The notes below the pieces were generated by a model. That model ran no database searches, was not told the origin of the DNA, and saw only the letters and a list, made by a program, of their open reading frames with translations. The position numbers and the translations under genes were made by a program. 64,000 bases of DNA from Aureispira anguillae (GTDB lineage Bacteria; Bacteroidota; Bacteroidia; Chitinophagales; Saprospiraceae). Positions 23,715 to 23,885 of the stretch are shown piece by piece; the stretch's first letter is position 1; each line of letters starts with the position of its first letter. The stretch covers positions 2,905,716 through 2,969,715 of the forward strand of contig NZ_AP026867.1 in NCBI RefSeq assembly GCF_026000115.1. The letters are read 5' to 3'.

Positions 23715-23885
23715 TGCCCAATGATTTTTGTGAAAATTAAAATGGGGGCAGCTTTTATCTATTTTTAGATCGCTTTGCTCTTAGAAATTAGATATTAGAT
23801 CCCAATTACAACTTAATTGGGATCTAATATCTAAGCGTGAAACGATCTAACCTCTAAAATAGGGCTAGAAAAAGCCCATTCTGTT
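23715..23885 (+). repeat. MITE-like intergenic repeat element, copy A (about 165 bp)
   Basis: It is about 92% identical to the reverse complement of 62419-62592. It contains a perfect 19-bp inverted repeat, tagatattagatcccaatt / aattgggatctaatatcta, around a 7-nt loop, plus a small GGGC...GCCC hairpin at one end. Both ends carry GCCCAWT in direct orientation. Confidence 0.75.

Follow-up and report, generated by a model that had tools for sequence, protein, structure and literature searches.

The window analysed here, a 64-kb stretch of the Aureispira anguillae genome, carries two copies of a short non-coding repeat, each lying between genes. Copy A (23712-23909, plus strand) stands between a Y_Y_Y histidine-kinase gene, whose start is at 23598, and a gene for a lipoprotein of 479 amino acids (24000-25439, minus strand), the stop of which borders the copy with an intrinsic terminator in between. 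Copy B (62393-62592, minus strand, 200 bp) is inverted relative to copy A; on one side it has a thioredoxin-domain gene (60966-62252/62285, minus strand) and on the other a LysE gene (62711-63340, plus strand), the two genes being divergent. The intergenic placement given by an initial annotation of this DNA is therefore correct for both copies. At both loci it is the same element end that points to a start codon, which is 113 nt away for copy A and 118 nt away for copy B; with two copies, the match between these distances is regarded as a coincidence.

The neighbouring genes have features of their own. The lipoprotein has no Pfam domains, and at least two paralogues, with 49% and 42% identity, are encoded in A. 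anguillae (contigs L011, 10001-11428, and L012, 10001-11476). A pair consisting of a Y_Y_Y histidine kinase and a LytTR regulator is found about 5.6 kb away on the contig of one of these paralogues, and such a pair is directly adjacent to the lipoprotein gene of the window. These arrangements hint at a recurring sensor-lipoprotein module. On the side of copy B, the LysE gene is missing from the interval between the S16 and thioredoxin genes in related Aureispira lineages (contigs L008, L009, and L010), one of which has about 1.5 kb of non-coding DNA in its place. Thus, the interval beside copy B has been remodelled.

Two inverted copies without coding capacity

A repeat search over the window returned the pair 23712-23897 / 62407-62592 as inverted arms of 186 nt with 90% complementarity, the runner-up inverted pairs being just 30-40 nt long at 70-83%. 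Local alignment and BLASTN extended the similarity to 23712/23717-23909 against 62393-62587/62592, with 90.3% identity over 195 nt. All three approaches bear out the inverted two-copy repeat of the initial annotation, with its spacing of 38.5 kb, and the identity of about 92% that it gave is also recovered, with 14 differences in 171 nt within 23715-23885. The length of 165 bp was too short, however, as the alignments give about 200 bp. The core measures 198 bp in copy A and 200 bp in copy B (62393-62592), the reverse complement of which matches copy A with 90% identity. The ends of copy A perhaps lie 2-5 nt further out, at 23710 and 23914. At both inverted ends the similarity between the copies stops sharply, and the flanking sequences are unrelated and share nothing. 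The G+C content of the element is 35%, versus 37% for the window.

The element is non-coding. Stop codons occur in all six frames and no ORF longer than 36 amino acids starts inside it. The 36-amino acid ORF at 62363-62473, used as a probe for miscalled ORFs across other copies, had no match among 1.84 billion representative proteins. Searching the whole window against Rfam 15 at gathering thresholds gave no match; at E-values up to 10, the matches were to plant and animal microRNA hairpin models, with 27 bits against thresholds of 48-230, and these are chance hits, well under the thresholds. A promoter scan, which covers sites of the sigma-70 type and not those of Bacteroidota, found no sigma-70-like site common to both copies, and inspection by eye found no common TAnnTTTG motif of the Bacteroidota type.

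Inverted ends and an empty orthologous site

At either end the element has an imperfect terminal inverted repeat, about 18 nt long, that follows the pattern CTCTACCCGAYGGTTTTT. Allowing up to three mismatches, this pattern is found at three of the four element ends and nowhere else in the 64 kb, with 0.03 occurrences expected by chance. In copy A, the repeat on the histidine-kinase side (23712-23729, plus strand) reads CTCTGCCCAATGATTTTT, with three mismatches to the pattern. At the other end of the same copy (23893-23909, minus strand), the sequence CTCTACC-GACGGTTTTT departs from the pattern by a one-base deletion, as seen in alignments of the element to copy B and to itself in reverse complement. 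The ends of copy B each have one mismatch, with CTCTACCCGACGTTTTTT at 62393-62410 (plus strand) and CTTTACCCGATGGTTTTT at 62575-62592 (minus strand), on the LysE side. A related insertion sequence (IS) would be recognised by the ends CTCTACCCGAYGG. The end of the element seems loosely to resemble the outside end of IS10 (AATGATTTT.GT.AAAAT); the likeness is AT-rich and offset, and no weight is given to it.

The comparison with empty sites that the initial annotation proposed could be made at site A. Two related Aureispira lineages are represented in Logan by ERR13834999 (contig L005), with a lipoprotein 74% identical to that of A. anguillae, and by SRR19733581 (contig L023), with one 72% identical. 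The order lipoprotein, terminator, histidine kinase is kept in both, and the intergenic region measures 217 nt in the former and 138 nt in the latter, versus 401 nt in A. anguillae. Read by eye, the terminator hairpin directly adjoins ...CAACTTTCAATCAAAAAATAGATATTAC... in both relatives. In A. anguillae, the homologous sequences ...AGCCTTTG and AACCTTTGATTAAAAAATAGGTAGTAC... are split by the element, and excision of the element together with one CCTTTG makes site A collinear with both relatives again. The restored collinearity means that the orthologous site is empty, and copy A is thus absent from it in both lineages. The same site is therefore known in an occupied and in an empty form, as is expected of a MITE (miniature inverted-repeat transposable element). 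A weak BLAST match in the relative L005 (about 10010-10121) did not withstand inspection. At site B, the region cannot be aligned in the relatives, where LysE is lacking, so that the empty-site argument concerns the insertion of copy A alone.

The collinear comparison also bears on the target sequence. Copy A is flanked on the plus strand by two CAAAGG hexamers, at 23704-23709, 2 nt outside the core end, and at 23915-23920, 5 nt outside it, and the empty sites of the relatives have a single related sequence in place of this pair. These observations support a candidate target-site duplication of about 6 bp (range 4-8 bp), an assignment made from the sequence and not certain; because the hexamers are offset by 2 and 5 nt from the core, neither the exact termini nor the length of the duplication is fixed. 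In the flanks of copy B, TATG alone can be matched as a duplication. The direct repeats GCCCAWT, which the initial annotation had considered as possible target-site duplications, do exist in copy A, as GCCCAAT at 23716-23722 and GCCCATT at 23874-23880. Both fall within the conserved part of the element, the first in the terminal inverted repeat and the second in a mini-hairpin (see below), and the counterpart of the first in copy B is ACCCGAT. Since they are conserved internal parts of the element, they are not target-site duplications, and the inference of a recent insertion that was drawn from them has no basis.

Recent insertion is not supported by a second strain either. This strain, sampled in SRR35212565-7 and 99.7% identical to the genome of the window, carries the element at both sites (contigs L017 and L018 for copy A, L020 for copy B), with one SNP in copy B. 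As both insertions are present in strains that differ by 0.3%, they predate the split of these strains. The best explanation for copy A is an insertion that is younger than the split from the closest Aureispira lineages sampled and older than the divergence of the two sampled strains.

Within the first 27 nt of copy A (23712-23738), the second strain differs at three positions (about 11%; CTCTACCCGATGATTTTTGTAAAAATT versus CTCTGCCCAATGATTTTTGTGAAAATT), while the preceding 170 nt or so of intergenic flank differ by about 2%. All three changes move toward the sequence of copy B, which is suggestive of gene conversion between the copies.

Foldback structure and probable further copies

Over its whole length, each half of the element is an inverted, degenerate copy of the other half. 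When 75-nt arms were aligned in inverted orientation with the central 48 nt removed, the scores were -10 for copy A and +15 for copy B, against -54 +/- 10 for shuffled sequences, none of 500 shuffles attaining these values. As the halves are inverted copies, the whole element is predicted to be able to fold back on itself. It may be speculated that this architecture arose when a single IS end was duplicated as an inverted copy, and not through a simple deletion in the interior.

At the centre of copy A, a hairpin (23788-23834) is formed by the arms TTAGATATTAGATCCCAATT (23788-23807) and AATTGGGATCTAATATCTAA (23815-23834) around the 7-nt loop ACAACTT. The palindrome had been described as perfect in copy A and slightly degenerate in copy B, which is right; its arms are 20 bp long rather than 19. 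The hairpin of copy B (62470-62516) departs from this by a G.A mismatch, a T.G pair, and a fully compensated pair, from T-A to A-T. Around the centre, at 23765-23857, the arms are rich in TTAGA/TCTAA. Each arm has four copies, so that about 95 nt contain 8 of them, against a density of 3.6 per kb over the entire window with both strands counted, and an outer stem of copy A pairs TAGATCG (23766-23772) with CGATCTA (23843-23849). Folded as DNA, 23760-23862 reaches -24.4 kcal/mol (z = -9.1), and single-strand RNA folds in the two orientations also beat shuffled sequences, with z of -5.8 and -7.0. The mini-hairpin GGGC(T)5CTAGCCC of the initial annotation is found in both copies, as GGGCTAGAAAAAGCCC at 23862-23877 and as GGGCTTTTTCTAGCCC at 62427-62442. 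On the minus strand of copy A it looks like a terminator and is followed by TATTTTAGAG. Such a role was rejected, since in copy B no gene lies upstream on the corresponding strand.

Several differences between the copies concern paired positions. Four one-sided changes all remain G.U pairs on the A(+)/B(-) strand. A new perfect 9-bp stem, TTTTAGACC/GGTCTAAAA, is made in copy B by a T-to-C change at 62534, specific to the strain of the window, together with a CC-to-GG change at 62452-62453. Differences that preserve or create pairing could mean that the structure is functional and not merely selfish; by our own count, the pairing signal is not significant with two sequences (about p = 0.06). 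Templated correction within quasi-palindromes is a known mutational process that yields the same pairing pattern without selection, and the pairing-preserving changes could stem from it.

A third copy was not seen directly, either in the 64-kb window or in a further 40 kb or so of A. anguillae sequence (contigs L001 and L011-L015). Sampling through paralogous proteins (L011-L015) and through proteins of the window (L016-L022 and L024) brought up no new copy. Wider collections were equally silent. An 18-mer conserved in both copies had one chance match among species-representative genomes, in an Opitutia MAG; a 20-mer had one chance match in JGI metagenomes, with no similarity in the flanks; two 21-22-mers had no matches in IMG/VR; and the full-length element had no BLASTN match in PLSDB plasmids or GenBank phages. 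These searches say little about copy number, the source genome apparently not being among the genomes covered. In the gene tables of the loci examined, no transposase, RAYT, or TnpA(Y1) gene was seen.

Further copies are indicated by the way in which assemblies break. Logan contigs are derived from a de Bruijn graph with k=31 in which each 31-mer occurs once, and they leave out pieces shorter than 150 bp (PMC12424806). Wherever contigs from the strain of the window (DRR408736) overlap the two copies, they agree with it letter for letter. They end inside the copies, copy A being cut at 23762 and 23857 and copy B at 62564 and 62550. On the assumption that a contig stops on entering a 30-mer common to another locus, the limits of the shared blocks would be 23733, 23886, 62535, and 62579. 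All four limits are directly beside positions at which copies A and B differ (23732, 23887, 62534, and 62580), for which, with about 11% of the positions differing, the chance is roughly 1e-4. The longest exact block common to the two copies is 29 nt, so A and B are not each other's branch partners. Moreover, the block on the A side has ATGGGGGC and that on the B side has ATTGGGGC; because these blocks differ, at least two different further copies are required. A control is provided by the second strain (SRR35212566), in which the SNP of copy B at 62534 gives a 30-mer identical to copy A (23754-23783, minus strand), and the contig stops exactly at that 30-mer. Finally, the second-strain contig that enters copy A ends with GTTCTCTACCCGATGATTTTTGTAAAAATT, which is absent from copy B and from copy A of the type strain. 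As this sequence is in neither known copy, another copy is implied; the same contig end suggests that the terminus includes TT before CTCT. From these breaks in the assembly graph, we infer a family of four or more members.

Other repeats occur in and around the window. A second short repeat, CATGAGTGCT(A/T/G)CGCAGTTGATTAT, recurs between genes at three unrelated places in A. anguillae, at 12159-12185 of the window, at 12285-12310 of L011 (minus strand), and at 12610-12640 of L012. Logan contigs break at or near it, with L011 and L014 ending there, L024 ending at 12166, and L016 starting at 12262. This may represent either a further family of small repeats or a regulatory motif common to these regions. 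A 2541-amino acid ORF (49800-57425, plus strand) contains five tandem 855-nt units at 50370-55360, which are 93-94% identical in parts and within which contig L019 starts; its product is probably a surface or adhesin-like protein of repetitive make-up. Another Logan contig, which carries 23857-41789, breaks off at about 41760-41820, in an intergenic region (41663-41850) without similarity to the element, where there may be a further repeat or a gap in coverage.

Nature of the element and relation to known families

Prokaryotic MITEs are defined by a length of 50-800 bp, terminal inverted repeats of at least 10-15 bp, and target-site duplications of 2-10 bp (PMC11602168), and they are mobilised in trans (PMC11602168; PMC10969869). 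The size of the core (198-200 bp), the length of its inverted ends (about 18 nt), the absence of any coding capacity, and the insertion documented at site A all fit this published definition, as would the length of the candidate duplication at copy A. It is probable that the element is a non-coding MITE of about 200 bp mobilised by a transposase. The earlier reading as a mobile or REP-type element is thereby retained in its first part, a miniature non-autonomous mobile element, on the grounds of the terminal inverted repeats, the absence of coding capacity, the empty site A, and the contig ends that point to further copies. The label "REP-type" is dropped, as the element has 35% G+C, is ten times as long as a REP, and is bounded by inverted repeats.

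Considering what is known of MITEs, the following course of events may be proposed. A transposase encoded elsewhere in the genome, presumably of the DDE type by analogy with this class of element, would bind both element ends in trans. The enzyme would cut and integrate the element, leaving a short target duplication. Copy A would have landed in this way just downstream of the lipoprotein terminator and upstream of the promoter region of the histidine kinase. The family would belong to A. anguillae, and it would probably be devoid of a function for the host.

Other explanations account for part of the same data. The palindromic character could point to an HUH (Y1) single-strand transposase, which would recognise the folded hairpin and not the inverted ends, the element being then a REPIN-like doublet served by a RAYT or a derivative of the IS200/IS605 type. 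The foldback of the whole element, with its halves as inverted copies, the very stable central hairpin, the changes that keep pairing, and the doubtful duplication at copy B are all in line with such a mechanism. We nevertheless consider it very unlikely. A length of 200 bp with 35% G+C is far from REPs, which are 20-40 nt long and usually G+C-rich, and from REPINs, of about 70-110 nt; the element ends in true terminal inverted repeats; its strong hairpin lies in the middle, whereas the ends of IS200/IS605 have it in a subterminal position; and the loci examined contain no RAYT or TnpA(Y1) gene. HUH transposition creates no flanking target repeats, yet copy A has a 6-bp flanking repeat that the empty sites back. 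Another proposal is that of a plain two-copy duplication, or of a relic of gene conversion, in which nothing was mobile and the inverted ends are a by-product of the palindromic nature of the sequence. It agrees with the fact that two copies were directly seen, that both are fixed in the two available strains, and that scans of the collections yielded nothing else. Its chances are the slimmest of all, given that the similarity halts sharply at the inverted ends without any shared flank, that the element is precisely absent from a collinear site in two relatives, and that contigs end at points where branching of a k=31 graph would require other copies.

The folding raises a different question, namely whether the repeat is a structured functional element (a small RNA, a cis-regulatory RNA, or a protein-binding palindrome) that was copied to two promoter regions and whose hairpin is under selection. 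Both copies have the same end upstream of a start codon, at 113 and 118 nt, the folds are far more stable than those of shuffled sequences (z from -5.8 to -9.1), TTAGA occurs 8 times in 95 nt, one pair is fully compensated while four one-sided changes are kept as G.U on the A(+)/B(-) strand, and copy B has gained the perfect 9-bp stem. In a related form of this idea, the foldback, with four TTAGA per arm and its compensated hairpin, would be a functional structure, either an RNA or a palindrome bound by protein, maintained by the host or by the element itself, and would influence expression from about 115 nt upstream of the starts; the probability of this is small. The odds of the structured functional element itself are slim. 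It has no match to an Rfam family and no common promoter site of the sigma-70 type, the strand on which G.U pairs are favoured points away from any gene at copy A and bears no consistent relation to genes, and the neighbouring genes are unrelated in function. Two related lineages with the same gene arrangement dispense with the element, and the pairing signal, in addition to its p of about 0.06 from two sequences, is one that templated correction of a quasi-palindrome would produce without selection. We therefore retain the MITE as the most probable reading.

By analogy in mode of action, the closest known systems are the Correia elements (NEMIS), the ERIC sequences, and IS-derived MITEs such as RUP or MITEAba12. 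Correia elements of Neisseria are non-coding, intergenic, bounded by inverted repeats, and 100-155 bp long (PMC3184786; PMC10969869). Like them, the Aureispira element is short, lies between genes, would form a long hairpin when transcribed, and is found beside gene starts, as Correia elements often are. The ends of Correia elements, however, measure 26 bp, their duplication is TA, and their copies number in the hundreds, as compared with ends of about 18 nt, a duplication of probably 4-8 bp, and at least four inferred copies in the present case, and there is no sequence relation between the two. ERIC (IRU) sequences of enterobacteria share the imperfect palindrome over the whole length and the location in intergenic or transcribed regions. 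They measure about 127 bp, belong to another phylum, are unrelated in sequence, and show little evidence of recent mobility, whereas an insertion is documented here by empty sites. MITEAba12 of Acinetobacter and RUP of Streptococcus pneumoniae (PMC6382973; PMC3049150) have in common with the proposed scheme inverted ends recognised by a transposase acting in trans, a short target duplication, and the absence of an ORF. In their case the parent IS is known (IS630-Spn1 for RUP), whereas no parent IS was found here in the loci examined, and the body of the Aureispira element is a foldback, unlike a deletion derivative with a unique core. REPs and REPINs, with their RAYT, are likewise extragenic, palindromic, hairpin-forming, and repeated. 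At 20-40 nt and about 100 nt, respectively, they are usually G+C-rich and have neither terminal inverted repeats nor a target duplication, and membership of this group was rejected for an element of 200 bp and 35% G+C with terminal inverted repeats and a flanking hexamer repeat at copy A.

The element looks like an ordinary kind of bacterial repeat that is novel for the genus Aureispira. Among the four papers found to name A. anguillae, no title or abstract is about repeats. As far as found in such titles and abstracts, and with the 2024 MITE list for 46,051 Bacteroidota genomes standing outside the comparison, this would be, if confirmed, the first MITE family described in Aureispira (Saprospiraceae). 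The practical value is modest, although the element may serve as a marker for strain typing, if confirmed, and a new biological question would arise only if the pairing-preserving changes reflect function. Confirmation would account for the breaks in short-read assemblies of A. anguillae at both loci. The ends of the element would then point to an active or recently active transposase family, and the repeat would mark a recent change in the 7.6-Mb genome of a gliding bacterium associated with eel larvae.
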